Positions 3,445-21,208 of a DNA stretch of 21,495 bases are shown one piece after another (the stretch's first letter is position 1; each line of letters starts with the position of its first letter). The notes beneath the pieces are model-generated. The model was not told where the DNA came from, made no database searches, and saw only the letters and a program-made list of their open reading frames with translations. The position numbers and the translations under genes are program-made. The stretch comes from a virus (lineage: Duplodnaviria; Heunggongvirae; Uroviricota; Caudoviricetes): IMG/VR virus record IMGVR_UViG_2778261537_000014, positions 1 to 21,495 of that record; one strand, written 5' to 3'.

Positions 3445-3540
3445 AGACTACCGCAAGCCAGGCGGACGCGGTGGAGGGCAGAACACTCCGTGTGTCACTG
3501 TGCCGTGGAAACCGGTCAGTCCGCCTTTTTCGGGGGAATT

Positions 3541-4496: not shown

Positions 4497-5200
4497 TTGC
4501 CGGTGGCGAGTTGAATAAAAAACAGCTGGCAGAGTTGCGCAAATCACTGGCCAGCATGGAGCTGCCGCCCAAAAAGCGCCAGCGTCTTATCTGGAGGCTG
4601 GCCAAATACGGTGTGATTGCCGCCGCAAAACGGCATGTTCGCAATCAGGAAGCACCGGATGGCCAGAAGTGGCCGGGGCGTAAAACGAAGCGCAAAGGGA
4701 AGATGCTGCGGAACCTGCCAAAACTGCTGCATATCCGTGAAATGCCAGAAATTCAGGCGGTGCGGATTTATTTGCAGGGCGGTGGCTACCGGAACGGGGA
4801 AACGCCGGTACCGGCCGGGACAGTCGGATATGCGCAACAAAACGGGATGCGCGTCAGTGCCAGCCGTCGCAGCCAGCCACGGAAGGCGCAGGCCGGAAAA
4901 ATGGCCACGCCAGCCCAGGCCAAAAAACTGCGGGCGCTGGGGTACCGGGTACGCACCGGTAAACGCTGGAAAAAGCCCACGCTGGGCGAGTTAACCCAAA
5001 CGATGCCATACAGCCGGGCGGGGTTACTGATTCGAAAACTCAGCGGTAAGGCGGTGAAAACCAGCTGGACAGTGGATCTTCCTGCCCGTGTCTTTCTGGG
5101 CATGAGTGACGATGAATTTGATAACGCGCTGGCGCGTCAGCTTCAGGCCATCGGCTTTGGCTGGGATGTTAAGGCGCAGGATATTAAGGGGAAAGCATGA
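4493..5200 (+). CDS. Putative virion morphogenesis / tail completion protein, gpS-like
   Basis: 235 aa with a basic-rich central region. ATGA overlap with the upstream gene and with the downstream sheath-like gene. Call rests on synteny only. Confidence 0.4.
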   Translation: MIAGGELNKKQLAELRKSLASMELPPKKRQRLIWRLAKYGVIAAAKRHVRNQEAPDGQKWPGRKTKRKGKMLRNLPKLLHIREMPEIQAVRIYLQGGGYRNGETPVPAGTVGYAQQNGMRVSASRRSQPRKAQAGKMATPAQAKKLRALGYRVRTGKRWKKPTLGELTQTMPYSRAGLLIRKLSGKAVKTSWTVDLPARVFLGMSDDEFDNALARQLQAIGFGWDVKAQDIKGKA

Positions 5201-6324
5201 CCTGGCCAAACGTGACCGTGAACCAGGTAAACCAGTTGCTGGGTGAAACCAATGAAGTGGAGCGCACGCTGCTGTTTATCGGTACGGGTACCAAAAATGT
5301 GGGGAAAACGCTGGCAGTGAATGCCCAGAGTGATTTTGATGCACTGCTGGGAGAAGGGGAAAGCCCGCTGAAAAACGATGTTCTGGCGGCACTGGCAAAC
5401 GCCGGTCAGAACTGGTGGGCATTTATGCATGTGCTGCCCGCAGATGCTGAGGACGATGCCTGGGTGAAAGCGGTTCTGGCCGCACAGGTGGTGTGTTCGG
5501 TGGAAGGGGTGGTGCTGTCCAGTGATGTGACGGCAAAAGCTCAAGTGAATCAGGCGGCGACGTTACGATCCACGCTGATTTCCAAATATGGGCGCTGGGT
5601 GTGGTTCATCCTGGCCGTGCAGGGAATGCAGGAAGAAGAAGGCCAGGCGGATTACCTGACCCGTGTGTCTGCTATCCAGGACGGTATAGCAGAGAAGGCG
5701 GTGCAGCTGATCCCGCGTCTGTGGGGAAATGAGCCGGGTGTGCTGGCTGGCCGTCTGTGTAGCCGTGCCGTGACTATCGCAGACAGTCCCGCCCGTGTGA
5801 AAACCGGGGCGCTGCTGAATCTGGGCAGTGATGAAATGCCGGTTGATGGTACCGGAGCGGTACTGGAGCTGGCCACGCTTAAGGCACTGGAAGCGCAGCG
5901 CTTTAGTGTGCCGATGTGGTACCCGGATTATGACGGTTTTTACTGGGCTGACGGGCGAACGCTGGATGTGGAAGGCGGCGATTACCAGTCGATTGAAACC
6001 CTGCGTGTTGCCGATAAAGCGGCGCGTCGTGTACGTCTGCTGGCTATCAGCAAAATTGCGGATCGTTCACTCAACAGCACACCGGGCAGCATTGCTGCAC
6101 ACCAGACGCTGTTTGCACGTCCACTGCGTGAAATGTCCACAGCGGCCAGTATCAATGGCGTGTCATTTCCGGGGGAAGTGAAGCCGCCGCAGGATGGTGA
6201 TGTGATCATTGTCTGGAAGAACAAAAAGACGGTGGATATTTATCTGGTGGTACGCACCTGGGAAGTCCCGCTGCAAATCACCATCAGTCTGTTACTGGAT
6301 GCCAGTCTGGAGGCCGCTGCATGA
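5197..6324 (+). CDS. Putative contractile tail sheath protein
   Basis: 375 aa. Immediately upstream of a roughly 150-aa tube-sized gene and downstream of the completion genes. Size is comparable to P2 FI. Call is by synteny; no direct sequence match recalled. Confidence 0.55.
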   Translation: MTWPNVTVNQVNQLLGETNEVERTLLFIGTGTKNVGKTLAVNAQSDFDALLGEGESPLKNDVLAALANAGQNWWAFMHVLPADAEDDAWVKAVLAAQVVCSVEGVVLSSDVTAKAQVNQAATLRSTLISKYGRWVWFILAVQGMQEEEGQADYLTRVSAIQDGIAEKAVQLIPRLWGNEPGVLAGRLCSRAVTIADSPARVKTGALLNLGSDEMPVDGTGAVLELATLKALEAQRFSVPMWYPDYDGFYWADGRTLDVEGGDYQSIETLRVADKAARRVRLLAISKIADRSLNSTPGSIAAHQTLFARPLREMSTAASINGVSFPGEVKPPQDGDVIIVWKNKKTVDIYLVVRTWEVPLQITISLLLDASLEAAA

Positions 6325-6776
6325 GTAAACGTATTTCGGGTATGTCGTTTGATACCTATCTTGACGGCGATCTGATCCACATCGAGAAAATCACGCTCGA
6401 TATCACGGATAACAGCGCCGCCGCCCAGACCCGTGGTGTGCCGGATGGCCATACTGATGGCGATGTGGCCGCAGAGGGAGAAATTGAAGTCAGTTCCAAA
6501 GTGCTGGGCGTACTGACAGCCAAAGCCCGCGCCGCAGGTTCGTGGCGCGGTATTCCTCCACTGGATTTCCTTTTCTATGCCAAAGCGGGCAGCGAAGAAA
6601 TGAAAGTGGAATCGTTCGGCAACAAACTCCAGCTAAGTAATCTGCTGGATATCGATCCCAAGGGCGGCGGTGTGGCGACGCACAAAATCAAATATTTTGT
6701 GACCAGTCCCAAGTTCGTGAACATCAACGGTGTGCCGTATCTGGAAGCGGAAGCCACGGAAAACCTGATCGGATAA
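6321..6776 (+). CDS. Putative tail tube protein
   Basis: 151 aa. ATGA overlap with the sheath-like gene. Size and position are consistent with an FII-like tube protein. Confidence 0.5.
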   Translation: MSKRISGMSFDTYLDGDLIHIEKITLDITDNSAAAQTRGVPDGHTDGDVAAEGEIEVSSKVLGVLTAKARAAGSWRGIPPLDFLFYAKAGSEEMKVESFGNKLQLSNLLDIDPKGGGVATHKIKYFVTSPKFVNINGVPYLEAEATENLIG

Positions 6777-6786
6777 GGAAGCCGGA

Positions 6787-7089
6787 ATGCAGGAACATGA
6801 AAAGAGCCTTTATTCACTGCTGATTATGGGGGCGCTCATTGCTGTTGCGAAGGTGCTGGCCAGTGATGATCCCATTACACCGCGCCTGTTTATCAGCCGT
6901 GTGATCCTGGGCAGTTTTGTTTCAGTCATCGCTGGCGCGGCGCTGATTCAAATCCCGGAGGCCAGCCCGCTGGCTATTCAGGGGCTGGGGGCTGCGCTGG
7001 GTATTGCTGGTTATCAGGCTGTTGAAATGTGGCTGCGCAGACGTGCAGCGGGAAAGAAGAACGGGAGCGTGACAAATGACCCTGAGTGA
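6787..7089 (+). CDS. Holin
   Basis: 100 aa with three hydrophobic helices (LYSLLIMGALIAVAKVLA, ISRVILGSFVSVIAGAALI, LAIQGLGAALGIAGYQAV) and a charged C-terminus. Strong SD AGGAAG 5 nt upstream. Directly precedes the endolysin. Confidence 0.7.
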   Translation: MQEHEKSLYSLLIMGALIAVAKVLASDDPITPRLFISRVILGSFVSVIAGAALIQIPEASPLAIQGLGAALGIAGYQAVEMWLRRRAAGKKNGSVTNDPE

Positions 7090-7417
7090 AAAGCAGCAAC
7101 TGTTTACCGTCATGGTGGCCAACCTGATCCACTGGGCGGAAGAACGAGGCTACCGGCTGACGTTTGGTGAAGCGTACCGCACCCCGGAACAGGCGGCGCT
7201 GAACGCGAAGAAGGGCAGCGGCATTTCTAACAGTCTGCACACCCAGCGTCTGGCCGTGGATTTTAATCTGTTTGTGAATGGCCAGTACCAGACCCGTACA
7301 GAGGACTATCTGCCACTGGGTGAATACTGGGAATCACTGGGCGGAAGCTGGGGCGGGCGCTTCAAATCCAGACCGGATGGTAATCATTTCAGCCTGGAAC
7401 ATAACGGGGTGCGCTGA
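7076..7417 (+). CDS. Endolysin, peptidase M15 family (zinc D-Ala-D-Ala carboxypeptidase / L-Ala-D-Glu peptidase-like)
   Basis: 113 aa. Metal-ligand-like pattern SLHTQRLAVDF ... GGSWGGRF ... DGNHFSLEH, typical of the M15 H-x6-D...H-x-H arrangement. SD GGGAG 8 nt upstream. Overlaps the holin stop. Confidence 0.8.
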   Translation: MTLSEKQQLFTVMVANLIHWAEERGYRLTFGEAYRTPEQAALNAKKGSGISNSLHTQRLAVDFNLFVNGQYQTRTEDYLPLGEYWESLGGSWGGRFKSRPDGNHFSLEHNGVR

Positions 7418-7797
7418 TGAGTCACGCGCAGTGGCTGGTTGTGGTGGCGCTGGCGTTTGTCTGGGGCTGGCTGACAGCTGACTGGCGGCGCGACAGTCTG
7501 GAGCTGGCAATCAATACGGCGGCGCAGGTGGCTGGTAATGAATCGCGAAAGGTTATGCAGGGCATTGCCAGTGATTCCGCCAGGGCGCTGGAAGATAAAC
7601 TGGAGGCGCTAAGAAATGCGCAACCGCGAGAGATCCGCACGGAAGTGCTTAAGCCGGTTTTTACTAACAGGTGCCTGTCTGATGAGTTTGTCAGCATGTA
7701 CAACAGCGCCGTCGCCGGTACCGAACGTGCGTTATCAGGAAAACCTGAAAACACGATGCGCCACGCAGCTGCCGCGCCTGAACGGGGCAACAGGTAA
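7417..7797 (+). CDS. i-spanin, Rz / LysB-like
   Basis: 126 aa with an N-terminal transmembrane segment (WLVVVALAFVWGWL) followed by a charged, helical periplasmic region. Start shares one base with the endolysin stop (TGATG). Contains an embedded lipoprotein ORF in another frame. Confidence 0.6.
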   Translation: MSHAQWLVVVALAFVWGWLTADWRRDSLELAINTAAQVAGNESRKVMQGIASDSARALEDKLEALRNAQPREIRTEVLKPVFTNRCLSDEFVSMYNSAVAGTERALSGKPENTMRHAAAAPERGNR

Positions 7798-7915
7798 AGA
7801 TGCAGCGGAACTGCTGACTGTTTACCTTGAAATATATGGCCAGTGTGCGGCGCGTCATAATCAGTTAGTCGATGAAATTAATTTAAGAGAACGTGTTATT
7901 TATGGAACAAATTAA
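7616..7915 (+). CDS. o-spanin, Rz1 / LysC-like outer-membrane lipoprotein (overlapped architecture)
   Basis: ORF in the +1 frame starting inside the Rz-like gene and running past its stop. Lipobox L-S-A-C after a signal-like segment (FLLTGACLMSLSAC) and a Pro-rich mature N-terminus (CTTAPSPVPN). GGAGG about 10 nt upstream of the ATG. Confidence 0.55.
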   Translation: MRNRERSARKCLSRFLLTGACLMSLSACTTAPSPVPNVRYQENLKTRCATQLPRLNGATGKDAAELLTVYLEIYGQCAARHNQLVDEINLRERVIYGTN

Positions 7916-8159
7916 ACTGAGCGTTTGTGGTGCAGATATTGTTTTTGAACCTAATCAGACTGCTTACAATAAACTGATTAATGAAATGGCAATGGATAAT
8001 AAAGTTGCACCTGCAAATAATTATCTGATGCGTATTGTTACCCCAGAAACGAAAGAAGCACTGATTGACGTATTAAAACGTCCGGGTGCAGCGTTGCAAC
8101 TGGTCAGTAAGGTTAATGATATTTACGCGCCGGAACTGGAGATTGAAGTAAAAAACTGA
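7902..8159 (+). CDS. Tail assembly chaperone (P2 gpE / lambda gpG analogue), zero-frame product
   Basis: Small acidic protein immediately upstream of the tape measure gene. ATG at 7902 is preferred over the ORF-track GTG at 7893. Ends at TGA 8157-8159, directly after the heptamer A_AAA_AAC. Confidence 0.65.
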   Translation: MEQIKLSVCGADIVFEPNQTAYNKLINEMAMDNKVAPANNYLMRIVTPETKEALIDVLKRPGAALQLVSKVNDIYAPELEIEVKN

Positions 8160-8350
8160 CAAAGCGAGTCCATGATATTGAACTAAATGGACTCGAACAG
8201 TATTTAATTCTCCGTCGTCATTATTTACCACATGGCCAGGATTCCGTTGACGATATTGCCGCCGCTATATGGCTGGATAATCGTCACTGGGAATATACGG
8301 GAATAGCCGTAGCTAATGGCGTGGCTAAAGCATTTAAAGGCACTGAATGA
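7902..8350 (+). CDS. Predicted -1 programmed-frameshift fusion chaperone (E+E' / G-T analogue): slip at A_AAA_AAC (8150-8156), then -1 frame open from 8156 to TGA 8348-8350
   Basis: Read directly: the -1 frame after the slippery heptamer has 64 sense codons (LTKRVHDIELNGLEQYLILRRHYLPHGQDSVDDIAAAIWLDNRHWEYTGIAVANGVAKAFKGTE) and ends in ATGA, overlapping the tape-measure start codon at 8347. No start codon exists for this frame. Confidence 0.6.
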
Positions 8351-10314
8351 AACAGTTAGATTTTACATTAAGCCTGATTGATAAATTGTCCCGCCCGTTA
8401 AAACAGGCGCAGGGCAGCGTAACGGGCTTTGCTGAAAAATCAAAAGAAGCCTTTATGCAGATTGGCGGCGGCGTTCTGGGGCTGGCGGGCACAGGGATGG
8501 CCATTAAAGGTGCGCTGATGCCTGCCATTGAAATGTATGACGCGCTGAATGATGCGGCCGCAAAAGGGATCGATGATTCTGCGCTTAAAGCCGTTCAGCG
8601 TGATGCGCTGCGCTTCAGTACAACCTACGGCGCCAGTGCGGTGGAGTTCGTCCAGTCCACGGAAAGTATAAACGCCTCCATTGCCGGACTGACCGGGAAT
8701 GAACTGCCGAAAGTGACGAAAGTCGCCAATACCCTGGCGTTTGCGCTCAAGTCCACCGCAGTAGAAACCGCTGAGTTTATGGGGCAGATGTTCGGTAACT
8801 TTTCCGCCGATGCCAACCGGCTGGGGAAGGTTGAGTTTGCTGAACAACTGGCCGGAAAAATGGTGTTCATGCGCAAAACCTTTGGCACGGAAATGGCCGC
8901 TATCAAGGATTTGATGGAAGGGGCGCGCGGCGTGGGTACTAACTACGGCGTGGGGCTGGATGAACAGCTGGCCGTGCTGGGACAGCTACAGCGGACACTT
9001 GGCACAGAAGCCAGCAGCGCTTATGAGGGCTTTATGACAGGAGCCATTGAGGGCGGTAAAAAGCTGGGGCTGTCCTTCACGGATTCCACCGGCAAAATGC
9101 TGTCCATGCCTGAAATGCTGATCAAGTTACAGGGCAAGTATGGCAAAAGTCTGGAAGGAAATCTGAAGGCCCAGGCTGAACTGGATGCGGCATTTGGAGA
9201 CAGTTCGGCGGTGGTTAAACACCTGTACGGTAATGTGGCATTGCTTCAGCGCAATATCACCGAGCTGGGCGGTGCAGATGGCCTGAAGCGTACCCAGGAA
9301 ATGGCGCAGAAAATGGTGAAGCCGTGGGATCGCTTTGTCGCAATCCTGAAGGCTATCCAGACCGTAATCGGCCTGACGCTGATCCCGGTGCTCTATCCGG
9401 TTCTGAACCGCCTGGCTGATATGGGGCAGACTTTTGCCCGCTGGATGCAGTTGTTTCCCAACATTGCGCGTGTTGTCGGGTATGCGGCAATGGCCTTGCT
9501 CAGCTTTGCGGCTGTGGGTGCTGTCGCCAATATTGTGATGGGGGCCTCTAAATTCATCATGATGGGGTTGCGCGGGATCTGGGTGGCGCTGATGGCCGTC
9601 ACGAAAATTTACACCGCCACTGTCTGGCTGGGAAACATTGCCGTTGTTGCCTGGAACGCCACGCTGAAATTTCTGCGCGGTACGTTGCTGGCGGTTCGTA
9701 TGGCGGCAATGATGGCCGGGATAGGTATCAATCTGATGAGCTGGCCGATCCTGCTGGTGATTGGTGCCGTCGCCTTACTTGCTGCCGGTTGCTGGCTGCT
9801 GATTAAACACTGGGACACGGTAAAGAACGCGGTCATGGATACCGCTGCATTTCAGGCATGCGCCAGGGTAGTGGAATGGCTGGCCGGGGTGTTTACTTCA
9901 GCCTGGCAGTTTATCAGCGAAGGATGGAACAGTTTTATTTCCATGCTGACCGGGTTTTCTCCTTCACAGGCATTAAGCGGTCTGGCCACGGGTATTGTTT
10001 CGTTGTTTGATAATGTCTGGCTGTCCGTTAAAAACGGTTTTCTGAAGTCGTGGAACTGGATTGTTGAGAAACTGAATAAAATCCCCGGTGTGGATATATC
10101 AATGGCAAGTACCACTTCACCACCATTAACTGGAAATACGTTGTCAACGGGTGGAGAGATAAAAGGAATTGATAAGGGCGGGATAAATAAAACAATCAGC
10201 AGCAATTCTAAATCAGTCACTGATAACAGCAAAAAAATAGGGGAGGTTCATTTCCATACCAAAGAAGCGATGTCCCCTGGTCAGTTAATGGAATGGCAGG
10301 AGCTAAATGCGTGA
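8347..10314 (+). CDS. Tail tape measure protein
   Basis: 655 aa, Ala/Gly/Leu-rich with a long central hydrophobic block (for example VLYPVLNRLADMG ... WPILLVIGAVALLAAGCWLLI). Sits immediately downstream of the frameshifted chaperone pair. Confidence 0.8.
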   Translation: MKQLDFTLSLIDKLSRPLKQAQGSVTGFAEKSKEAFMQIGGGVLGLAGTGMAIKGALMPAIEMYDALNDAAAKGIDDSALKAVQRDALRFSTTYGASAVEFVQSTESINASIAGLTGNELPKVTKVANTLAFALKSTAVETAEFMGQMFGNFSADANRLGKVEFAEQLAGKMVFMRKTFGTEMAAIKDLMEGARGVGTNYGVGLDEQLAVLGQLQRTLGTEASSAYEGFMTGAIEGGKKLGLSFTDSTGKMLSMPEMLIKLQGKYGKSLEGNLKAQAELDAAFGDSSAVVKHLYGNVALLQRNITELGGADGLKRTQEMAQKMVKPWDRFVAILKAIQTVIGLTLIPVLYPVLNRLADMGQTFARWMQLFPNIARVVGYAAMALLSFAAVGAVANIVMGASKFIMMGLRGIWVALMAVTKIYTATVWLGNIAVVAWNATLKFLRGTLLAVRMAAMMAGIGINLMSWPILLVIGAVALLAAGCWLLIKHWDTVKNAVMDTAAFQACARVVEWLAGVFTSAWQFISEGWNSFISMLTGFSPSQALSGLATGIVSLFDNVWLSVKNGFLKSWNWIVEKLNKIPGVDISMASTTSPPLTGNTLSTGGEIKGIDKGGINKTISSNSKSVTDNSKKIGEVHFHTKEAMSPGQLMEWQELNA

Positions 10315-10640
10315 ATGAACCACTTTATATAGATTTGCTGATCCTGAAGGGTGATTTTGTTCTAAACACCGGATATGAACCTGAACTGTGTAATAACCGT
10401 AAAAGTATCGGGCAGGACATTATTCACGCCATTATTGAGAGCGGACTGGCAACGGAACTGATTGCTGAACGCAGCCCAACAATGCGGGCGGATATTTTTA
10501 CCCGTATGGAATTATTGATTGAAGATGATGAACGGATTATTCCGGGAACTGTAGAAATCAGTGAGAAAAGCCAGAAACGTTTATGGATAACTGCCAGCAC
10601 CTATGACTTGGGCGGAATTTCTGCGCAGGTGGATTTATGA
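10293..10640 (+). CDS. Putative baseplate wedge protein, gpW / gp25-like
   Basis: 115 aa, the same length as P2 gpW as I recall. Position immediately upstream of the baseplate J gene. Start is ambiguous: ATG 10293 (overlaps the tape-measure end) or GTG 10311 with GGAG 8 nt upstream. Confidence 0.5.
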   Translation: MAGAKCVNEPLYIDLLILKGDFVLNTGYEPELCNNRKSIGQDIIHAIIESGLATELIAERSPTMRADIFTRMELLIEDDERIIPGTVEISEKSQKRLWITASTYDLGGISAQVDL

Positions 10641-11821
10641 CGGAAAAACCGCAGGTTGATTTTGAAGAAGTGGTGAAAGCCAGCGGGTTGCCGGTGACGG
10701 AATCGGAAGTGCGCGAACGCTTCAATGCGATAGCGGCCGAGGAAGGGATCATCACTAACACATCCCGCATGTCACCGTTCTGGCGTCTGATTACGGCCAT
10801 TGTGACGGCACCAGTGATGTGGCTGAAGGATGTTCTGGTATTCACCGTGCTGGCCAATATGTTTGTGGCCACGGCCAGCGGGAGCATGTTGCGTCTGCTG
10901 GCCTGGGCGGTAAACGTCACGGCAAAGCCCGCCAGTGCTGCTCAGGGGGTGATCAGGTTCTTTAAAGAAGATGCCAGAGCCGTGGTGACGGTGAAGACCG
11001 GAACGGTTATCCAGACTGAACGCATCAACGGCCGGGTGTATGAGCTGGCGACCACTGACGATGTGGTGATCCCATCCGGCACTGCCAGTGCATTGCTGCC
11101 GGTGAAAGCCACCGGAACCGGGGGAGCCTATAACCTTGCACCAGGGTATTACCGCATTCTGCCGGTGGCCGTGGATGGTATCAGCCATGTGGCCAGTGAG
11201 GAAAACTGGCTGACAGTGCCGGGTGCCGATGAAGAAAGTGATGATGAACTGCGTGAACGCTGCCGCAACCAGTTCAACCTGGTGGGCAATTACCACACGG
11301 ATGCGGTTTACCGTTCAATGATTGCTGGTGTTGCCGGGCTGAGTATCGACCGGATTTTCTTTGAGCATGAAGCGCCGAGGGGACCGGGTACAGCAAACGC
11401 CTATTTATTGCTGGACAGCGGGGTGGCTTCCGCGCCGTTTGTGAATGCGGTGAATGACTACATCAACACGCAGGGGCATCACGGCCACGGTGACGATATG
11501 CAGTGTTACGCCATGCCGGAAACCCTTCACGATCTGGCCGTGACGGTGTACGTCAGAAATCTGACCAACCTGACAGACGACGAACAGAACAACCTGAAGA
11601 ACGGGATTGAAAACCTGATCCGCTGTGCTTTTCGTGAGAATGCAGATTTTGACGTCAGAAAGACGTGGCCATATTCGCGTTTCTCGTTTTCTCAACTGGG
11701 GCGCGAGATCCACAAAACCTTTTCGCTGGCAGATTCACTGTTCTTTTCTCTGGGTGACATTACCAGTGAGCTGAATGTGCCGCGCCTGAAATCACTGGTA
11801 GTGAGTCTTGAGAATGAATGA
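10637..11821 (+). CDS. Baseplate assembly protein J (Baseplate_J family)
   Basis: 394 aa. ATGA overlap with the upstream gene. Central region (VVTVKTGTVIQTERINGRVYELATTDDVVIPSGTASALLPVKATGTGGAYNLAPG) is typical of baseplate J proteins. Followed by a gpI-like gene. Confidence 0.75.
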   Translation: MTEKPQVDFEEVVKASGLPVTESEVRERFNAIAAEEGIITNTSRMSPFWRLITAIVTAPVMWLKDVLVFTVLANMFVATASGSMLRLLAWAVNVTAKPASAAQGVIRFFKEDARAVVTVKTGTVIQTERINGRVYELATTDDVVIPSGTASALLPVKATGTGGAYNLAPGYYRILPVAVDGISHVASEENWLTVPGADEESDDELRERCRNQFNLVGNYHTDAVYRSMIAGVAGLSIDRIFFEHEAPRGPGTANAYLLLDSGVASAPFVNAVNDYINTQGHHGHGDDMQCYAMPETLHDLAVTVYVRNLTNLTDDEQNNLKNGIENLIRCAFRENADFDVRKTWPYSRFSFSQLGREIHKTFSLADSLFFSLGDITSELNVPRLKSLVVSLENE

Positions 11822-12401
11822 GTTCATGAAAAAGCTGACCGGGATGGTGCTTCCTTCCTGGATGAATCGGGGAGAGCCGAACAAGCTGCTGAAAACAGCC
11901 CGGCGATTCTGGGCGGAGGTTTACGGCTGGATAACATGGCCGATGAATCAGTTTGATCCGCTGACCTGCACCCCGGCATTGCTGAACCTGCTGGCCTATG
12001 ACCGAGATATTACCCGTTTTGACGGGGAGCCATTGAGCCTGTTCCGCAAGCGCGTGGCGTACGCCTTTATTAATGCGCGTGATGCCGGTTCGGTTGAGGG
12101 ATTTATCAATATCTTTGAACGGTTGGGCATTGGATATGTGGAACTGCTGGAGCGCCAGCCGGGGATCGACTGGGACGTGATTCAGGTACGTGTCACTGAT
12201 AGCCAGGTTTCGGACAACACGCAACTGATGATTCAGATTATCCGTAAGTACGGGCGAACATGCCGCCGTTATCAGTTTGAAGTGATTACATCAGAGAGCC
12301 TGGCAATTCGGGCGGGATGGGATCAGGGGGAATATGTGGTTTATCCGGCATCATTAAGCGGTACGGAAACACCCAGCGCGACATTCAGCGCGGGTTTGTA
12401 A
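11814..12401 (+). CDS. Tail protein I, gpI-like
   Basis: Motif DPLTCTPALLNLLAYDRDITRFD resembles the P2 gpI NPDTCPAALLPWLAWALSVDRWD-type signature. ATG 11814 overlaps the J stop (ATGAATGA); the ORF track used TTG 11808. Confidence 0.8.
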   Translation: MNEFMKKLTGMVLPSWMNRGEPNKLLKTARRFWAEVYGWITWPMNQFDPLTCTPALLNLLAYDRDITRFDGEPLSLFRKRVAYAFINARDAGSVEGFINIFERLGIGYVELLERQPGIDWDVIQVRVTDSQVSDNTQLMIQIIRKYGRTCRRYQFEVITSESLAIRAGWDQGEYVVYPASLSGTETPSATFSAGL

Positions 12402-12411
12402 GGAGTTTTAT

Positions 12412-13959
12412 ATGTCACAGACAACGATAACGCTGGCGTTTGAGCAGTGGAAAGCGAAACAGGGTACTACGGGTGAGCCTGTTCTATTGGATGAATTTGT
12501 TTTTGCCAGTGTGCCGGGGCTAGACCCTGATGCGCCCATTGATCGGGCTGAGGTGTTGCCGCCTGAATCGCAGATTGTTCATCGCCAGGCAGTCAGCCGC
12601 AAAGGCGTTGTAAATAACAACGCCGTGGTGCATTCCGCTGTTCTGGGCGCTGATGTGGGCGATTTTTCGTTTAACTGGATTGGGTTGGTTAACAAGGCCA
12701 GCGGCACACTGGCAATGATTGTTCATGCGCCGGTACAACAGAAGCTGAAAACAAAAGAAGGGCAGCAAGGTAACGTTCTGACCCGTTCTTTTTTGATGGA
12801 ATACAACGGCGCACAGGCTGAAACCGGAATTAATACACCGGCTGAAACCTGGCAGATTGATTTCACGGCGCGTATGGCCGGAATGGATGAGCGCCAGCGC
12901 CTGGAAAATGTTGATATTTACGGCGCAGCGGCATTCTTTGGGGACGGTTATCTGGTCGGGAAAACGGGTAATCAGTTTTTCGTCACCAAAGGCACCGGAT
13001 ATGTGGCGGGGCTGCGTTCTTCACTGGTTGCAAATCAGGATATTACCGTGACAACTAAGCCTGTAAAAGTCTGGCTGGATGTGTGCTGGACTGGGACGTT
13101 GACTGGTGTCTGGAATGCGCAGAGCAAAATTACTGTAGCGGAAAAACTGACTGATTATGTGCTGGGTGGGGTGCAACATTATGTTTTTGCGCTCGCCAGT
13201 ATTGATTCAGATGGCAATATCACGGATTTACGCCCAAAGGGTACGCTGAATGAACAACAGGCTACTGATGCGCTTAAAAGGCATGAGCAATCCCGGAATC
13301 ACCCCGATGCTTCAATCACAGAAAAGGGGTTTGTACAGTTAAGCAGTGCAACGGATAGCAATTCCGAAAAACTGGCCGCAACGCCCGCTGCGGTTAAGCA
13401 GGTTAACGAGAACGCCAATAAAAGACAGCTGGCGAATCCTCTGTTAACTGCACTTGCCAATCTTGCCACGCAAAAGAACATGTTTCCGTGGTTTACCGGG
13501 GAAAATACCGTTGCTACCAGTGCACTGACTGAATTTGCCCGTGAATTGCTTAGTAAAGGTGATGTGGCATCGGTTCTCAGGCATCTGAAACTGGGGAACG
13601 CCGCTACAAAAGATGTTGGTGTTCTGCCCGGGCAGGTGTTACCCGCGACAGCGTTTACTGCGCATTTGTCTGGATCGGGAATGTGTAAATTCCCGGTTCA
13701 GGCAACATCCGGAGCGTTTATTAATCTGATTTTTATGTGGGGCGTTACCAGTACCCCACCTGGTTCTTCTGCTGGTTACAATTTCCACACGGCTTTTCCC
13801 TATGCCTGTCTGATGGCTATGGGGTGTCGCGGGGCGGATGGTACGAATGCCAGTATGAATGTCAGGGCGCATAACAACACAACAATGATTATTCAGAACT
13901 GGGCACCAGTGGGGTCCGGTTACTGGGAAGACTGCATTTGGTTTGCAATTGGTTACTGA
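12412..13959 (+). CDS. Tail fiber protein, gpH-like
   Basis: 515 aa. Perfect SD AAGGAG. Internal block HEQSRNHPDASITEKGFVQLSSATDSNSEKLAATPAAVK closely matches the P2 gpH repeat HEQSRRHPDASLTAKGFTQLSSATNSTSETLAATPKAVK. Divergent C-terminal domain. Confidence 0.85.
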   Translation: MSQTTITLAFEQWKAKQGTTGEPVLLDEFVFASVPGLDPDAPIDRAEVLPPESQIVHRQAVSRKGVVNNNAVVHSAVLGADVGDFSFNWIGLVNKASGTLAMIVHAPVQQKLKTKEGQQGNVLTRSFLMEYNGAQAETGINTPAETWQIDFTARMAGMDERQRLENVDIYGAAAFFGDGYLVGKTGNQFFVTKGTGYVAGLRSSLVANQDITVTTKPVKVWLDVCWTGTLTGVWNAQSKITVAEKLTDYVLGGVQHYVFALASIDSDGNITDLRPKGTLNEQQATDALKRHEQSRNHPDASITEKGFVQLSSATDSNSEKLAATPAAVKQVNENANKRQLANPLLTALANLATQKNMFPWFTGENTVATSALTEFARELLSKGDVASVLRHLKLGNAATKDVGVLPGQVLPATAFTAHLSGSGMCKFPVQATSGAFINLIFMWGVTSTPPGSSAGYNFHTAFPYACLMAMGCRGADGTNASMNVRAHNNTTMIIQNWAPVGSGYWEDCIWFAIGY

Positions 13960-13960
13960 G

Positions 13961-14407
13961 ATGATGATGACTGACAAATACCGTTTTTCCGGCAATATTT
14001 TTTACCCATATTCCAGTAAAGCTGATTTTGATGCTGCCGGAACATGGCCAAAATCCGGCGTGGATGTGGATCTGACTACTTATCTGACTTTTATTCAGCC
14101 ACCTCCGTTTGGAAAGTTGCTTGGTACCGACAAAAAAGGCGCGCCATGCTGGATTGATATTCCGCCATTAACGCGCGAACAATTGATCACCCAGGCTAAG
14201 TATGAGAAAAGCCGCCGCCTGGATGAAATTAATATGTTCATCAATGACAGGCAGTGGCTGGGTAAGGCGGTGCTGGGCCGTCTTACTGACGACGAAAAAG
14301 AACTGTATGGGAAAGCCCTGGATTACCTTGATGAACTTAGCGCCTTGGATCCGCAAGATATGCCAGACAACTGGCCGGAATTTGAGGGATTTACCAATGT
14401 GGCGTGA
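13961..14407 (+). CDS. Tail fiber assembly chaperone, gpG / Tfa-like
   Basis: About 148 aa, immediately downstream of the tail fiber gene. Start is at the ATGATGATG run just after the fiber stop. Confidence 0.65.
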   Translation: MMMTDKYRFSGNIFYPYSSKADFDAAGTWPKSGVDVDLTTYLTFIQPPPFGKLLGTDKKGAPCWIDIPPLTREQLITQAKYEKSRRLDEINMFINDRQWLGKAVLGRLTDDEKELYGKALDYLDELSALDPQDMPDNWPEFEGFTNVA

Positions 14408-15122
14408 AGCACGTCTGGCCTTCACTGACTCACTGACAGCACTGAATTGTTCGGTCGTTCCGGCGCATCCGTGGATAAACGGACTGGGGCAACAAACGGA
14501 TAATGGGGCATATCTCAGTCCGGTTAATGCTGTCCGCTATCTTGCTGAAAGGCTTGCCGGAACGGGGGGGAATACCGATGTGATGATCATGATGGTGACT
14601 GGTCAGACGCATGAAAACTTTATTACCCGCCTCAACGGTCTGGTAGATGTTTTTCCGGCACCGGCTTTCACTCAGGTCAAGCGCCTGGCGCAATCCGCCG
14701 CGGCGCTGGCCATCGAAAAAATGCAGATCCCTGCGAAAACTGGGGCAGGGTTACCGGTTGCCATTCCTCTGTCGGTGCCAACCACCAGGGCGGCATTGTC
14801 AGCTGCGGCTGTCAGCCAGGCACAAAAAGCGGCCAGCGCAGGTTTCAGCCTGGGCGGGTTAAAGCAGCAACTGGGGGAATTCACGCAGCTGCGTGAAAAA
14901 CTTATCGGTGATGTGGCCAGCGGGCTGGACGATTTACAGGGAAAAAGCGCCAGAGCCTGGGTGTTTACGAGCAACGGCAACACAGCCACCACGCTGCTGG
15001 AGCTGGTAAAAGATATTCCGCAGCCATCAGCCGTTTATGCAGCGGCAGTGATGCTGGTTGGTGACAATCTGGATGGAATAAAGGGAATGATTCATGACTT
15101 CGATCCCAATACTGGCGCTTAA
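14397..15122 (+). CDS. Hypothetical protein (241 aa), function unknown
   Basis: ATG at 14397 with SD GAGGGA 8 nt upstream, overlapping the Tfa-like stop. Ala/Leu/Gly-rich; no motif recognised. The ORF-track start at 14202 is rejected as an upstream extension. Confidence 0.5.
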   Translation: MWREARLAFTDSLTALNCSVVPAHPWINGLGQQTDNGAYLSPVNAVRYLAERLAGTGGNTDVMIMMVTGQTHENFITRLNGLVDVFPAPAFTQVKRLAQSAAALAIEKMQIPAKTGAGLPVAIPLSVPTTRAALSAAAVSQAQKAASAGFSLGGLKQQLGEFTQLREKLIGDVASGLDDLQGKSARAWVFTSNGNTATTLLELVKDIPQPSAVYAAAVMLVGDNLDGIKGMIHDFDPNTGA

Positions 15123-15639
15123 CGGCGAGGCCATACCGCTGAAAAACATGCGTGTGACTGTATCGCAGCAGTTTCAGGATAAAGACCAGTCCGGCCAGAC
15201 AAGCGCCACAACCAAATCAGAACAGGGGGCAAAGGGGAAAGAGCTGCGTATCAGTGGCGAAATTCCGTTTAAAAGCCCGGAGATCCTGAAGCGTATTTTT
15301 GAACTGGCCAGCGCCACGGATGCCGGAGGAAATCGCCAGAAATACCGCGTGGCGCATGAAGTGGCCAGAGCCGTGAATTTTCGCGAGGCGACATTCAGCG
15401 GGATGCTTGATGCTCCGCAGCAGGACGGGAAAATGGCCTGGCTGGTTACGTTCACCCTGGCGGAACATATCAGCGTGCAGGAAAAGCGGGAAGCCAGGGC
15501 AACAGGCAAAACGTCTGCCAAAAAACAGACTGCCGGTAATGCGGGACAATCTGGCGGCCAGAGTGCCGGAGAAGATGAAGAAAAACTGACGTGGTTTGAA
15601 AAACGGGTGCTGAAACCCGTCAATGATGCTTTGGGTTAA
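15094..15639 (+). CDS. Hypothetical protein (181 aa); possibly a gpU-like tail protein by position
   Basis: SD AAGGGA 7 nt upstream. Overlaps the upstream ORF by 29 nt. Low-complexity Gly/Ser/Gln/Ala-rich stretch near the C-terminus. No family recognised. Confidence 0.45.
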   Translation: MTSIPILALNGEAIPLKNMRVTVSQQFQDKDQSGQTSATTKSEQGAKGKELRISGEIPFKSPEILKRIFELASATDAGGNRQKYRVAHEVARAVNFREATFSGMLDAPQQDGKMAWLVTFTLAEHISVQEKREARATGKTSAKKQTAGNAGQSGGQSAGEDEEKLTWFEKRVLKPVNDALG

Positions 15640-17342
15640 TGATGAAACCAGTTAAACGCCTGTACCTTTCAACGGATGAAGTTCACCTGGCTGATGCCAG
15701 CCTTGTGCTGGAGCTGAACAGCTGCGGCCGGGGATTTATCACTGCACAGACAGCCGCGGATTACACCGGGAAACTGGTGCGGCTGGATGTGGGGTATTCC
15801 GATCTGCTTTTGCGCTGGTTTACTGGTTATGTGGAACGCTCACAACCCGCCGAAAACGGCTTTCAGCGTCTGTTTGTGCGCGAGCTGGTCGGCGTTTTTG
15901 AAAGAATGTGGCCATGTTCATTTCAGCATCCCACTTTGCGCAAGGTTGCCAACTGGCTGGAGGAAAACAGCGGAATTACAGTCAGTGTGCCGGATGCCCC
16001 TTACAGCGATAAACCGATCCCCCATTTCACTCATAACGGCACGGGCTATCAGTTGCTGAATAATCTGGGCAGAGCATTCAGTATTCAGGATTACATCTGG
16101 TACCAGTTGCCAGATGGTTCCCTGTATGTGGGCGGCGCGGAAAAAGCGATGTTTGCCGGTCGTCCGGTAGATATCCCGGCAGAGTTCAGCCAGGGGGCTG
16201 CTGGCGGTAATTCCATGACGCTGCCGGTGATCCAGAGTCTGCGGCCGGGAGTGGAGCTGAACGGGGAGCGCGTGACAAAAGTGCACCTGACCAATGACAC
16301 AATGGCAGTTACCTGGACACCCAGAAATCGCGCAACAGGTCAGCCCTTACAGAAAACACCGGCACAGCGTCAGATTGAAAGCCATTACCCGGAACTGGCT
16401 TCCGGGCTGCACCTGCCAAAACTGGCCAGAGTGATAGCACCCAGTGAGGTCGTGAAAAGTGGTAGTTTTGCCGATCCGTTCCGGCCACGCTATGCCGTTG
16501 ATGTGCAACTGCTTGATGCAGACGGCAACCCGGATAACCAGACGCCAGTTTATTCTGCGGTGCCGCTGCCGGTACCTATGGCCGGTAATGACTCCGGCAT
16601 GTTCCAGTTTCCGCCAGAAGGAACGCTGGTTGAAGTTGCGTTTACCGGAGGGCGCCCGGATAAACCTTTTATCAGGCAGACGCTGCCAGATGGTACCAGT
16701 CTGCCGGATGTTAAGCCCGGTGAGCAGCTGCAACAGCAGCGGGCTGAAGTGTCGCAGCGTGTTACCCAGGCTGGCGATTGGGTACGGCAGACCGATCAGA
16801 CTATCAGCGAAATATCGATGGCGCGGACGGTCAAAGCCGACACGGAACAGCGTGATCTGATCAGCCGTGAAACCACGGTTAAAGCCACTGATAAAACTAC
16901 GGTGCTGGGTACCGCCACCCTGATGGCCGGAGCCATTCAGCAGGTCAGTGCCGGGGATTATAGCCAGGCCGTGAAAGGCAACAGGCTGGCCAGCATTGAA
17001 GGGAATGACGAAACCGATATTGCAGGGGAACAGTCCACTAAGGTGGCCGGAGGCGTGGATGTATATGTGGGGGGAACCCTGACTGAAAAGATTGCTGCAT
17101 TACGCAAATCTGTAGCATCGGGCGGCCAGCAGATTATGGGACCAACCGTCCATATTGGTAGTGAGAGTGTCAACACGCTGGCCATGATGCTGGATACCAT
17201 TGATTTACTGGCGGAGCTGGCGCAGCAATGTGCGAGCCATTCACACCCCAGCGTGGCTACGCCAACCAATGCCGGCGCATTTACCCAGACGGCAGAAAAG
17301 GCCGGACAGACCCGCAAGAAGTACCAGAGCATAATTGCCTGA
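15639..17342 (+). CDS. Baseplate hub-spike fusion protein: gpD-like N-terminal domain plus gpV-like spike C-terminal domain (VgrG-like)
   Basis: 567 aa. N-terminal block TLRKVANWLEENSGITVSVP resembles P2 gpD TLRQIAETLANEHGLELEVP. The region AVPLPVPMAGNDSGMFQFPPEGTLVEVAFTGGRPDKPFI resembles the gpV/gp5 OB-fold signature (WLTHRAGRSRTWWAPSVGEQVLIL...). HxH motif near the C-terminal tip (SHSHP, nt 17238-17246) is like P2 gpV HTHKHP. Confidence 0.65.
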   Translation: MMKPVKRLYLSTDEVHLADASLVLELNSCGRGFITAQTAADYTGKLVRLDVGYSDLLLRWFTGYVERSQPAENGFQRLFVRELVGVFERMWPCSFQHPTLRKVANWLEENSGITVSVPDAPYSDKPIPHFTHNGTGYQLLNNLGRAFSIQDYIWYQLPDGSLYVGGAEKAMFAGRPVDIPAEFSQGAAGGNSMTLPVIQSLRPGVELNGERVTKVHLTNDTMAVTWTPRNRATGQPLQKTPAQRQIESHYPELASGLHLPKLARVIAPSEVVKSGSFADPFRPRYAVDVQLLDADGNPDNQTPVYSAVPLPVPMAGNDSGMFQFPPEGTLVEVAFTGGRPDKPFIRQTLPDGTSLPDVKPGEQLQQQRAEVSQRVTQAGDWVRQTDQTISEISMARTVKADTEQRDLISRETTVKATDKTTVLGTATLMAGAIQQVSAGDYSQAVKGNRLASIEGNDETDIAGEQSTKVAGGVDVYVGGTLTEKIAALRKSVASGGQQIMGPTVHIGSESVNTLAMMLDTIDLLAELAQQCASHSHPSVATPTNAGAFTQTAEKAGQTRKKYQSIIA

Positions 17343-17352
17343 CTATCCCTTC

Positions 17353-17378
17353 AGCCCGCGCATAATGCGGGCTTTTTT
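17353..17378 (+). terminator. Rho-independent terminator closing the late/tail operon
   Basis: 7-bp GC-rich stem AGCCCGC / GCGGGCT with 7-nt loop GCATAAT, followed by TTTTTT. Lies 11 nt after the hub-spike stop codon. Confidence 0.75.
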
Positions 17379-18023
17379 GTGCCCATCCTCAGACCCCACC
17401 AGACGCATTCTAAGCGCTTCTTTTATCTGACCACTACCGCGCAACACCACAAAAGGATCTGTTCTGTCACGTTACGCTGACGACGCTACACGCTGACAAA
17501 ATAAATCTTTCGCAGACAAAAACGGCACTACACCGCACCCGCCTGCGGTTTCTGGATAGATAAAATTTTTCAGTTTTCTTTTTCTACAAATTAGGCAGCC
17601 AGACAGCGCCAGTTCTGGCGGTTTGCGGGATATTTCAAACTGAAAAGATTGAAAAGAATTTCAGCATTTTTCAGTTAGAAGGATCAGTGAAGGATCTGAG
17701 TGAGTTTATAACTATCAGATAAATATAGTAAAATATCACTTTCCGTGTGAAGCACGATCTAATTTTATTAGAAGTAGTGTTGAGATGAAAAAACTCGCAG
17801 GCTTAGGAATGATGCTAGATGTAGCTGAGTTAGAAAAATTTTGAAACTGAAATTTTTTGTCTTAGACATTAACCTGTTAGATATGAGATTACTTGCTTTT
17901 TTGCTGCAAAGTATTTGGTAATCTAGCTAAAAGCACTAGCGGATTAGACTATTGTTGGTTTGATCTCAATTGGCTCTTTGAAGTACAGGATAGAAACATT
18001 TAATTGGAAACTGAGAGGATGTT

Positions 18024-18638
18024 ATGCCATTTGCTCAAATGATGCGCGATAAATTAACACTAGTAAAACAAGATGGTAGTCGTATTGAAGATCTAAAAGG
18101 AAGTGTTCAGAAAGGGAAAATAATCATCATGAGAGGGGATATCTCGATTGAACCTGACGATGAACTGCATCGTGCAATGCCAGCTGGAAAATTTGAGGAG
18201 TACATTGTTGTTGAGCCGAATTTTCGGCAGGGACTCCATGGGATACCGTCCCATTACCAAGCTGAGGTGAGGAGGAAGACCCAAAGTAACTTTGTTACAG
18301 GAGCAACTCCGGGTGCACATACCATAAATTACAATCTATATGGTGCGAACAGCAGAGTGAACAACGACTCTATCGATAATTCTAGAAACTTCTCGGGAAG
18401 TGATGAAAATATTCGTCAGGTTTTGCAGGTTCTATCATCAGCACGAAAGGATGTCGAGTCTGCCACAATGGAACCAACCGATGTGCAAACAACAACTGCT
18501 ACTCTAGATATCGTCGAAAGCCAAATACAGACACAGGCACCTTCGAAGCCTGTGATTAAGACCTTGTTAGCTGGATTACCTGCTGTTGCGCAGGCATTGC
18601 CTTCGATAGTCAAATTGATTGAATTCTTTAAGGATTAA
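18024..18638 (+). CDS. Hypothetical protein (204 aa) in a visibly AT-rich accessory segment; unknown function, candidate moron or defense gene
   Basis: Strong SD GAGAGGA 5 nt upstream of the ATG. Codon usage and flanks are much more AT-rich than the phage or host genes. Compact N-terminal domain, Asn/Ser/Thr-rich middle, and a C-terminal amphipathic/hydrophobic segment (PVIKTLLAGLPAVAQALPSIVKLIEFF). No family recognised. Confidence 0.6.
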   Translation: MPFAQMMRDKLTLVKQDGSRIEDLKGSVQKGKIIIMRGDISIEPDDELHRAMPAGKFEEYIVVEPNFRQGLHGIPSHYQAEVRRKTQSNFVTGATPGAHTINYNLYGANSRVNNDSIDNSRNFSGSDENIRQVLQVLSSARKDVESATMEPTDVQTTTATLDIVESQIQTQAPSKPVIKTLLAGLPAVAQALPSIVKLIEFFKD

Positions 18639-18720
18639 CGCTCTGTCGCCATTTTGTCGCCACACTCGTTAAATGTGTGCTCTAAACGGTTGATTCGAAA
18701 GGGGCTGAATTTCAGGCAAC

Positions 18721-18875: not shown

Positions 18876-20561
18876 TTATCCTAATCCTGGCCATACCATG
18901 ACGATGATTGTCCCTGCCAGCGTCAGCAGGACGTTGGCGATTGCGTAGGTGCCCGCATAGCCCAGCGCAGGGATGTTACTGCGAGCTGTATCACTGATGA
19001 TCTCCATTGCCGGCGCGCAGGTGCGTGCGCCCATCATTGCGCCGAACAACAGTGCGCGGTTCATTCGCAATACATAAGCACCGAACAAGAAACAGATAAC
19101 CACGGGCACAAGACTGACAATTAATCCGGCAATCAACATCTGACCGCCAATCGCGCCCAGGCCGTTATTAATACCGCTACCGGCGCTCAGACCAACGCCT
19201 GCCATAAACACCATCAAGCCGAACTCTTTCACCATGCTTAATGCACCTTGCGGAATGTAACCGAAGGTCGGGTGGTTAGCACGCATAAAGCCCAGCATAA
19301 TTCCGGCGAATAACAACCCGGCAGCGTTCCCCATGCCGAAACTGAATGTGCTGAACTGGAAGGTGATCATCCCGATCATCAGCCCAATAACAAAGAAGGC
19401 GCAAAATGCCAGCAGGTCAGTGACCTGGCTGTGAATCGAGATAAAGCCGATGCGATCGGCGATGGTTTTTACGCGACGGGCATCACCGCTGACTTGTAAA
19501 ACGTCACCTTTGTTAAGCACGACGTTGTCATCTATCGGCATCTCAATCTGGCTACGAATGACGCGGTTAAGGAAGCAACCGTGATCGGTCAACTTCAGTT
19601 GTGCGAGACGTTTACCTACAGCGTTATGGTTTTTAACGACCACTTCTTCAGTGACGATACGCATGTCGAGAAGGTCACGATCGAAAACTTCTTTACCGTT
19701 ACGGAAGCTGGGATCGAGTCGGGCATGGGCGTCGGGATAGCCTACCAACGCTATTTCATCGCCCATTTGTAGCACGGCATCACCGTCTGGATTTGCCAGA
19801 ATCCCGTTACGTCGAATACGTTCAATGTAGCAGCCGGTTTGTCGATAAATACCCAGTTCACGCAGATTTTTGCCGTCGGTCCAGGCCACCAGCTCCGGGC
19901 CGACGCGATAGGCGCGGATCACCGGTAAATAAACCTTACGGTTGGCATCAGTGTCCAGGCCACGTTCGCGGGCGATTTGCTGGGCGCTGGTCTGTAAGTC
20001 CTGATGCTGCAATTTCGGCAAGTAACGCGCACCAACAATCAAACTCACCAGACCGATTAAATAGGTTAAGGCATACCCGAGGCTCAGATTATCCAGTGCC
20101 AGTGAGAGCTGCCTGCTTTCCATGCCGGAATGACGCAGTGTATCGCCAGCACCGACCAGAACCGGTGTCGACGTCATAGAGCCTGCTAACATACCGGCCG
20201 TCAGGCCAATATCCCAGCCAAACAGCTTACCTAACCCTAAGGCGATCACCAGCGCACTGCCAACCATCACCAGTGCTAACATTAGGTAATTTTTCCCATC
20301 GCGAAAAAAAATGGAAAAAAAGTTCGGTCCGGCTTCGACCCCGACGCAGAAAATAAACAGCATAAAGCCAAGATTAAGCGCATCGGTGTTAATGCTGAAA
20401 TGTTGTTGGCCTAATAACAGCGATACGACTAAAACGCCAATGGAATTACCCAGTTGGATCGAACCAAGTCGTAACTTTCCGAGACATAGCCCAAGCGCGA
20501 GGACCACAAATAATAACAGAATGTAATTCCCATTTAACAATTCGGCGACGTTTATATTCAC
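18876..20561 (-). CDS. ybjL: Putative AAE-family transporter YbjL
   Basis: 561-aa polytopic membrane protein with paired transmembrane blocks flanking central cytoplasmic regions. Recognised as E. coli YbjL from memory. GTG start at 20561. Confidence 0.85.
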
Positions 20562-20830: not shown

Positions 20831-21208
20831 GTGAAACATAAACAACGTTGGGCGGGGGCAATCTGCTGTTTTGTCCTCTTCATTGTGGTGTGCCTTTTTC
20901 TGGCGACGCACATGAAAGGCGCTTTTCGGGCTGCCGGGCATCCTGAAATCGGCTTGCTATTTTTCATTCTTCCTGGAGCAGTCGCCAGCTTCTTTTCACA
21001 GCGTAGAGAAGTCCTGAAACCTCTATTTGGCGCAATGCTGGCGGCACCCTGTTCAATGCTCATTATGCGGCTGTTTTTTTCACCGACGCGCTCATTCTGG
21101 CAAGAGCTGGCATGGTTACTAAGCGCGGTGTTCTGGTGTGCGCTGGGGGCACTGTGTTTCTTATTTATCAGTAGTTTGTTTAAACCACAGCACAGAAAAA
21201 ATCAGTAA
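20831..21208 (+). CDS. ybjM: Inner membrane protein YbjM
   Basis: 125-aa hydrophobic protein. GTG start with SD AGGAGGAA. Conserved position between ybjL and grxA as in E. coli K-12. Confidence 0.8.
   Translation: MKHKQRWAGAICCFVLFIVVCLFLATHMKGAFRAAGHPEIGLLFFILPGAVASFFSQRREVLKPLFGAMLAAPCSMLIMRLFFSPTRSFWQELAWLLSAVFWCALGALCFLFISSLFKPQHRKNQ

Follow-up and report, generated by a model that had tools for sequence, protein, structure and literature searches.

A probable fusion of baseplate hub and central spike in an HP1-type prophage of Escherichia coli

The last late gene of a P2-like prophage in E. coli (15639–17342, + strand) very probably codes for a single polypeptide that joins the central hub of a contractile tail to its membrane-piercing spike, a phage counterpart of VgrG. 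The window, which is the whole stretch of DNA analyzed here (21,495 nt; IMG/VR record IMGVR_UViG_2778261537_000014), carries the late operon of this prophage on the + strand, and the element is of the HP1/ESSI-2 type (Peduoviridae). An earlier sequence-only reading had proposed that a single protein of 567 amino acids (aa) combines a gpD-like N-terminal region, reaching residue 290, with a gpV/gp5-like OB-fold and spike region that ends near an HxH motif in the sequence SHSHP. Comparison of the predicted structure and fold of both halves with gp27/gpD and gp5/gpV/VgrG models supports the assignment of hub plus spike.

The 567-aa open reading frame (ORF) is intact, and its homologues are of like length. 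1267 database proteins match it at E ≤ 1e-5, and nearly all of the 120 best matches listed are 558–568 aa long. The profile of phrog_2258 ('baseplate protein') matches residues 2–567 with positions 1–544 of its 544 (E = 3e-276). Because of the number of matches, their near-uniform lengths and this end-to-end profile match, conservation identifies the ORF as a genuine gene, neither a chance ORF nor a sequencing or assembly artefact. Its ATG shares one base with the TAA of the upstream gene (TAATG; TAATGATG), and the overlap couples the two genes translationally. An alternative ATG at 15642 is the start in most homologues. The position of the gene at the end of the operon, also part of the earlier reading, was confirmed by an intrinsic terminator 11 nt past the stop codon, which closes the late operon and is followed by a stretch of low GC content. 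The terminator is strong, a AGCCCGCG-CATAA-TGCGGGCT hairpin whose 8-bp stem has 6 GC pairs, followed by TTTTTTGT. The gene lies 1.3 kb from the right prophage end. Its last position had at first suggested a tail fibre; this identity was ruled out as the fibre and its chaperone are encoded upstream (Table 1).

The N-terminal part was examined by structure prediction. A model of the protein was built with AlphaFold2 (AF2) on a 53-sequence alignment of enterobacterial, Vibrio and Aeromonas homologues. The predicted local distance difference test (pLDDT) score is about 90 over residues 1–230 and 52–56 over residues 231–260. The N-terminal model superposes on hub proteins, and the alignment covers essentially the whole domain at 2.5–3 Å. 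When the full-length model was compared with the PDB by Foldseek, the top matches were fused, VgrG-like spikes from extracellular contractile injection systems (eCIS), namely AlgoCIS 7aef_q (E = 4e-17), Anabaena 7b5h, Streptomyces 9gtr, PVC8 6j0m and 9qgm, and Afp8 6rbk. Alongside them stood VgrGs of type VI secretion systems (T6SS; 9jg9, 8gra, 9mlp, 7q5p and 4mtk), collinear along the full length. The fused-spike matches span E = 4e-17 to 1e-12. Hub-only proteins rank after them and include PhiTE, Mu gp44 (2e-9), MuSo2, P1, E217 gp41 and the pyocin R2 hub. Matches in BFVD carry the names 'Phage protein D', '43 kDa tail protein' and XkdQ. As modelled, residues 1 to ~232 have the gp27/Mu gp44/gpD hub-core fold.

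Sequence libraries did not recognise the N-terminal part. The hub family was aligned by hhalign with a seven-member gpD alignment, and query residues 2–147 paired collinearly with gpD 13–174 (P = 5.5e-4), a weak match, yet one that stands out from the controls, which score nothing. The gpD genes for this profile were fetched singly, and a search with P2 gpD returned only copies 98–100% identical to it. Small-profile hhalign is insensitive for the tail module: the expected pairs DUF2590/gpW and orf34/gpU gave no score either, and its negative results weigh little. With that limit, hhalign of the N-terminal part against the single P2 gpD sequence gave nothing. A gpD profile search does not recover the window ORF. 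Searches of Pfam (E ≤ 10, 14 family members) and of PDB profiles returned no significant match to the N-terminal part. E217_GP41 was hit in 1/14 family members (E = 0.029), the window protein not among them. Because no sequence model reaches threshold, the hub assignment rests on the predicted structure and the weak profile match. The gpD-like region of the earlier reading is thus borne out by the AF2 fold, Foldseek and the gpD profile, with no match in the sequence libraries.

The hub is short. The last 100–150 residues of gp44 and gpD are absent, and a hub of like size is found in the solved baseplate of cyanophage Pam3 (gp19, 229 aa). It does not reach residue 290, as had been proposed, and ends near residues 232–240. 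The hub/spike boundary lies near residue 235 because split relatives break at 232–240, PHROG 4011, a spike-only family, begins matching at residue 243, and pLDDT drops. The linker at this boundary is conserved within the Enterobacteriaceae.

In split relatives with the same short hub, overlapping genes yield hub and spike as two polypeptides, whereas the window encodes one chain. Such pairs occur in Pseudoalteromonas phage proACA1-A (gp48 and gp49 of ACA1, 234 and 317 aa), Pseudomonas phage phita81A/2 (gp38 and gp39, 232 and 323 aa) and Pam3 (gp19 and gp20), and also in Vibrio cyclitrophicus phages (229 and 231 aa). In the three split loci L003, L006 and L007 the two genes overlap by 10–28 nt at the junction, which corresponds to residues 232–240 of the window protein, and in all three the spike gene is in frame −1 with respect to the hub gene. 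Programmed frameshifting in these relatives was rejected, as the overlaps contain no slippery heptamer; short overlaps of this kind represent ordinary translational coupling.

The distribution of the hub domain was examined with HMMER in an exhaustive comparison with 1.84 billion cluster representatives, and 256 clusters were recovered. The best 150 of the 256 comprise 90 stand-alone hubs (215–262 aa), about 12 true fusions and, for the rest, fragments. The tip is helix-HxH-helix in ten of these fusions and of another kind in two. When a neighbour-joining tree, which is only indicative, was built from the hub domain, a single clade of 18 leaves contained all the fusions. Five leaves inside this clade are 'split', and at least two of them appear to be fragments of fused proteins. 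These sequences are read most simply if the separate genes represent the ancestral state and one fusion event, or a few, took place in the HP1/K139/ESSI-2 lineage of gammaproteobacterial phages. For this it would suffice that the stop codon was lost and the frame changed in the hub/spike gene overlap.

Residues ~241–567 are a spike of the gpV/gp5 type with an HxH tip, in line with the earlier reading, and comprise a probable OB-fold and a gp5-like octad beta-helix. The C-terminal beta-helix of T4 gp5 matches residues 413–508 (phmmer, E about 2e-8), and the OB region of a VgrG matches residues 292–355 (E = 6e-4). Pfam Phage_base_V falls just below threshold (22.9 bits vs 23.8), and Gp5_C is likewise sub-threshold. 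In the neck, the columns from P360 to V371 are invariant in 53 diverse homologues, and the neck is poorly predicted in the monomer model. When residues 412–499 are written in rows of eight, octads of the gp5 type appear, with glycine in the fourth position. The beta-helix has pLDDT < 50 in the AF2 model, which is expected when an intertwined trimer is modelled as a monomer. Distances between two invariant anchors in 234 homologues fall into classes of 122/121, 114/113 and 99/98 residues. The steps between them, 8 and 23–24 residues, are close to one and three octads, and needle length appears to vary roughly by the 8-residue repeat unit.

The proposed HxH motif is present as C-A-S-H-S-H-P at residues 531–537, with H534 at nt 17238–17240 and H536 at nt 17244–17246. 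Both histidines are kept in 233/234 homologues. An HxH close to the C-terminus is an accepted marker of the spike apex domain, and in P2 gpV the H197-x-H199 motifs of three chains cage an Fe ion (bioRxiv 10.1101/2023.02.25.529910). AF2 secondary structure of the monomer places the HSH sequence between two tip helices (pLDDT 70–87). The tip is probably unlike gpV's beta apex of 21 residues. No sequence relative of the tip (residues 501–567) was found in the PDB.

Some Vibrio relatives, split and fused (P0218, P0377 and P0378), have a Cys/His-rich ending of ~30 residues instead of the helix-HxH-helix, with the pattern …NGGxGVxxxxxICPFxGxPHxDxSxTVxAGK. At the Vibrio locus L007 a gene with the alternative tip (3166–3861) is followed by an extra 65-aa ORF (3864–4061). 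Pfam finds nothing for the alternative tips or for this ORF. Sequence comparison suggests that members of one spike family can exchange their tips as modules.

A hub or spike encoded elsewhere was also sought. A gpD profile, P2 gpD and P2 gpV were searched against every ORF in the six frames of the window and of the whole HP1 genome, and no separate gpD or gpV was found at E < 0.02, in agreement with the single hub gene of the earlier reading. The homologues of HP1 orf33 and orf34 are the only late proteins without an assigned role. The orf34 homologue is the size of a tube initiator (181 aa). HP1 orf34 has been tentatively related to gpU, a relation called uncertain (PMC10612066). Hhalign, within the sensitivity given above, does not confirm it. 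The orf34 homologue is a candidate gpU-like tube initiator. For the orf33 homologue AF2 predicts an alpha/beta protein, largely helical with long helices, at a mean pLDDT of only 50.8, and hhalign relates it neither to gpD nor to the hub domain. A second hub in the element is unlikely.

The mechanically called 306-aa ORF at 14202–15122 overstates the orf33-like gene. Its start is ATG 14397, since homologues are uniformly 241 aa, and from this ATG the gene shares 11 nt with the end of the fibre assembly gene. The orf33 family is very divergent, with 17–24% identity to the HP1, K139 and Pseudomonas versions.

Three other explanations of the gene were weighed. The single ORF could be an artefact: two genes usually kept apart, as in the Pseudomonas, Pseudoalteromonas and some of the Vibrio relatives, would have been joined by a frameshift of sequencing or assembly or by a recent mutation. 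The 10–28 nt overlap of split versions exactly at the junction would fit this, as would the majority of stand-alone hubs among the best 150 of 256 clusters. Yet the same fused length recurs among the homologues listed from Escherichia, Salmonella, Citrobacter, Enterobacter, Vibrio, Aeromonas and Haemophilus, the fusion is also present in the isolated phages HP1, HP2, K139, phiO18P, F108 and ESSI-2, and the fused forms make one clade with a linker that is conserved in the Enterobacteriaceae. An artefact has next to no chance of being correct. It is also highly improbable that the protein is a spike only, with 232 N-terminal residues that serve as an accessory or adaptor domain (for instance secretin N0-like or receptor-binding) and with the true hub made by another gene such as the orf33-like or orf34-like one. 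Against the N-terminal model, hub proteins reach twice the score of N0 domains and align over nearly the whole domain at 2.5–3 Å, and the full-length collinear matches are VgrG, Afp8 and PVC8. The orf33-like product is largely helical in prediction and has no profile similarity to gpD or the hub, and the orf34-like product has the size of a tube initiator. The eCIS and T6SS spikes that give the best full-length structural matches would also suit a bacterial VgrG/eCIS spike from an effector-delivering secretion or tailocin system. This origin is very improbable, however, given the complete phage late operon around the gene (scaffold, capsid, terminase, head completion, sheath, tube, lysis, tape measure, wedge and fibre) and the close relatives in plaque-forming phages. 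No effector domain follows the spike, and the hidden Markov model TIGR01646 (vgr_GE) scores 16.2 bits vs a cut-off of 121.8, over the OB region alone.

Several points weigh against a joined hub and spike. On the N-terminal part, the gpD, gp27 and VgrG sequence models all stay below threshold. The tube initiator is represented by a candidate only, and the orf33-like protein has a model of low confidence, leaving slight room for a second hub-like component. The spike was modelled as a monomer, and its trimer, metal site and helical tip are matters of prediction and inference. The tip is probably unlike the gpV apex and is without a solved relative.

For a protein that joins hub and spike, a mechanism can be proposed by analogy with baseplates whose structures are solved (P2, Mu, pyocin R2, T4 and eCIS). 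After contraction the P2 spike is located in the periplasm. The P2 baseplate has three gpD, six gpU and a trimeric gpV under the hub (bioRxiv 10.64898/2026.09.14.750843). In the prophage tail, three copies of the fused protein would assemble about the tail axis. Their hub domains would form a pseudo-hexameric ring that adapts the six-fold tube and tube initiator to the three-fold spike, and the initiator above the ring would probably be the orf34-like protein. The OB folds and the intertwined beta-helix would make a rigid needle, at whose point the six histidines of three HxH motifs may cage a metal ion, by analogy with the Fe of P2 gpV. Sheath contraction would push the needle through the outer membrane. 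Being covalently joined, hub and spike would have to leave the tube end together, as VgrG does, freeing the channel for the tape measure protein and DNA. Tentatively, and at less than even odds, the tip may be a structurally new apex: a trimeric coiled coil would extend the beta-helix to a His6 metal cage, the C-terminal helices would fold back, and this helix-HxH-helix would replace the beta apex of gpV as an exchangeable tip on a spike that, through the covalent link, would have to be shed with its whole hub while DNA is injected.

The features of the window are collected in Table 1.

Table 1. Features of the window, in order of position; residues are those of the 567-aa protein.
Feature	Position	Strand	Remark
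Scaffold	852-1655	+	
Capsid	1717-2739	+	
Small terminase	2743-3444	+	head and tail completion genes follow
Sheath	5197-6324	+	
Tube	6321-6776	+	
Lysis cassette	holin 6787, M15 endolysin 7076, Rz 7417, Rz1 7616	+	
Small chaperone-like ORF	7893-8159	+	88 aa
Tape measure	8347-10314	+	
DUF2590	10293-10640	+	
Baseplate_J	10637-11821	+	
Tail_P2_I	11808-12401	+	
Tail fibre	12412-13959	+	
Fibre assembly protein (chaperone)	13943-14407	+	
HP1 orf33 homologue	14397-15122	+	241 aa; phrog_1677
HP1 orf34 homologue, baseplate complex protein	15094-15639	+	181 aa; Pfam HP1_ORF34 PF25759, E 9e-55
Complete hub-spike gene	15639..17342	+	567 codons plus stop; from ORF listing and translation
Predicted hub domain, short gp27/Mu gp44/gpD-type core	15639..16334	+	residues 1-~232
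Linker (RATGQPLQ..)	16335..16358	+	residues ~233-240; site of stop and new start in split relatives
Spike N-terminal helix and probable OB-fold	16359..16703	+	residues 241-355
Neck, with P-G-E-Q-L-Q-Q-Q-R-x-E-V motif	16704..16823	+	residues 356-395
Triple-stranded beta-helix region, octad repeats xVxGxxxx	16824..17159	+	residues ~396-507
Tip module	17160..17339	+	residues 508-567; predicted helix 513-533, H534-S-H536-P, predicted helix 545-566
Intrinsic terminator closing the late operon	17353-17373 (feature span 17353..17380)	+	
ybjL	18876-20561	-	host gene
ybjM	20831-21208	+	host gene

The host of the prophage is E. coli because E. coli chromosomal DNA (ybjL, ybjM and grxA; 99% identical) resumes at ~18643. 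Homology to the window begins at ~18643 in most of 5,422 E. coli genomes. Sequence alignment places the right prophage end at this position, just downstream of the ybjL 3′ end. Between the late terminator and the host junction lies a 1.3-kb stretch of low GC content (0.39–0.45; 17381–18643) with a single ORF of 204 aa (18024–18638, + strand). This ORF belongs to phrog_16834, and over its C-terminal ~90 residues there is a weak match to PDC-M14B, a candidate defence family of PADLOC (E = 4e-5). Prophages at the ybjL site of other E. coli differ here: EcPF15 has two small hypothetical ORFs and LR-51 a PIN-domain protein. The position looks like a variable cargo (moron) slot, since these related prophages carry different genes there.

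The lysis cassette (6787–7915) lies between the tube gene and the tail chaperone, which is the HP1 arrangement, and Rz1 overlaps Rz in another frame. In P2, unlike the window, the lysis genes adjoin the head genes. The 88-aa ORF matches the P2 gpE/E+E′ tail chaperone pair in size and position; that pair is made by a −1 frameshift. Between this ORF and the tape measure gene are 187 nt without a listed ORF, like the gap after HP1 orf26.

The fusion itself has already been stated for HP1 (PMC10612066, Table S1 footnote d). It is the rule in the HP1 group, and its recognition in the window is correct and not novel. The family is widespread as well, with members in far more than a thousand clusters of the databases, and the result carries little weight as a discovery. 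What is added is model-based structural confirmation of both halves, the exact boundary, a short hub that is mostly stand-alone with an apparently derived fusion clade, and a distinct, apparently exchangeable tip. The predicted helix-HxH-helix tip is the sole part not yet described. For annotation the result is of use: most database copies are called 'hypothetical protein', some 'baseplate assembly protein V', and in RefSeq genomes they are mostly unnamed. The family could be named 'baseplate hub-central spike fusion protein'. Related tails that have the same short hub and spike, fused or split, with at least two alternative tips, constitute a natural experiment. Comparison of fused and split forms could ask whether the spike must part from the hub for DNA delivery.

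Sequence comparison identifies the window protein as an orthologue of HP1 orf35 (UniProt P51739), K139 orf39 and phiO18P gp46, and of the F108 and ESSI-2 proteins. By tblastn it is 40% identical to HP1 orf35, 34% to the K139 protein and 90–92% to its counterparts in ESSI2-type phages of Escherichia and Salmonella. Full-length identity is 34–42% for HP1 orf35, HP2 orf35, K139 orf39, phiO18P gp46 and the Pasteurella phage F108 protein (40–42% over 100% of the length for HP1 orf35) and 78–92% for ESSI-2-type phages. HP1, K139 and phiO18P have the same gene order, with the hub-spike gene as last late gene behind the orf33 and orf34 homologues, and the same two modules with HxH. In K139 a terminator is annotated at the corresponding place behind orf39. 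Apart from drift in sequence, these proteins differ only in the length of the beta-helix, which is 32 residues shorter in HP1 than in the window protein and 24 shorter in K139 and phiO18P. No solved structure or genetic study of the HP1 orf35 group was found in the literature.

P2 gpD and gpV, Mu gp44 and gp45, and the pyocin R2 hub and PA0616 have the folds predicted for the window protein, presumably in the same places of the baseplate (hub core, OB-fold and beta-helix), and at their tip an HxH metal cage, which the window protein may share. These pairs are two genes and two polypeptides, whereas the window has one. In P2 the genes lie far apart (V 10308–10943, D 22791–23954), as the earlier reading had pointed out. 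gpD and gp44 have 380–390 aa with an extra C-terminal domain and loops, in contrast to the 232 residues of the window hub. The 21-residue beta apex of gpV ends 12 residues past its HxH, whereas the HxH of the window protein stands between two predicted helices, 31 residues from the end. Sequence similarity of P2 gpD and gpV to the window protein is at or below detection.

The T6SS VgrG and the eCIS spikes (Afp8, Pvc8, AlgoCIS Alg8, Anabaena and Streptomyces) are single chains, like the window protein, in which a gp27-like hub precedes an OB-fold and beta-helix of the gp5 kind. They differ in that they serve capsid-less secretion or injection systems, have a hub part ~130 residues longer, and are usually blunt and capped by a separate PAAR protein, whereas the window protein has its own HxH tip. 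The VgrG-like architecture of the sequence-only reading therefore stands by the fold matches, but its view that this architecture is atypical for such a phage does not, since the element is of the HP1 type, where the fusion is normal. The window protein has the architecture of VgrG and Afp8, yet by sequence model and context it belongs not to their family but to that of HP1 orf35.

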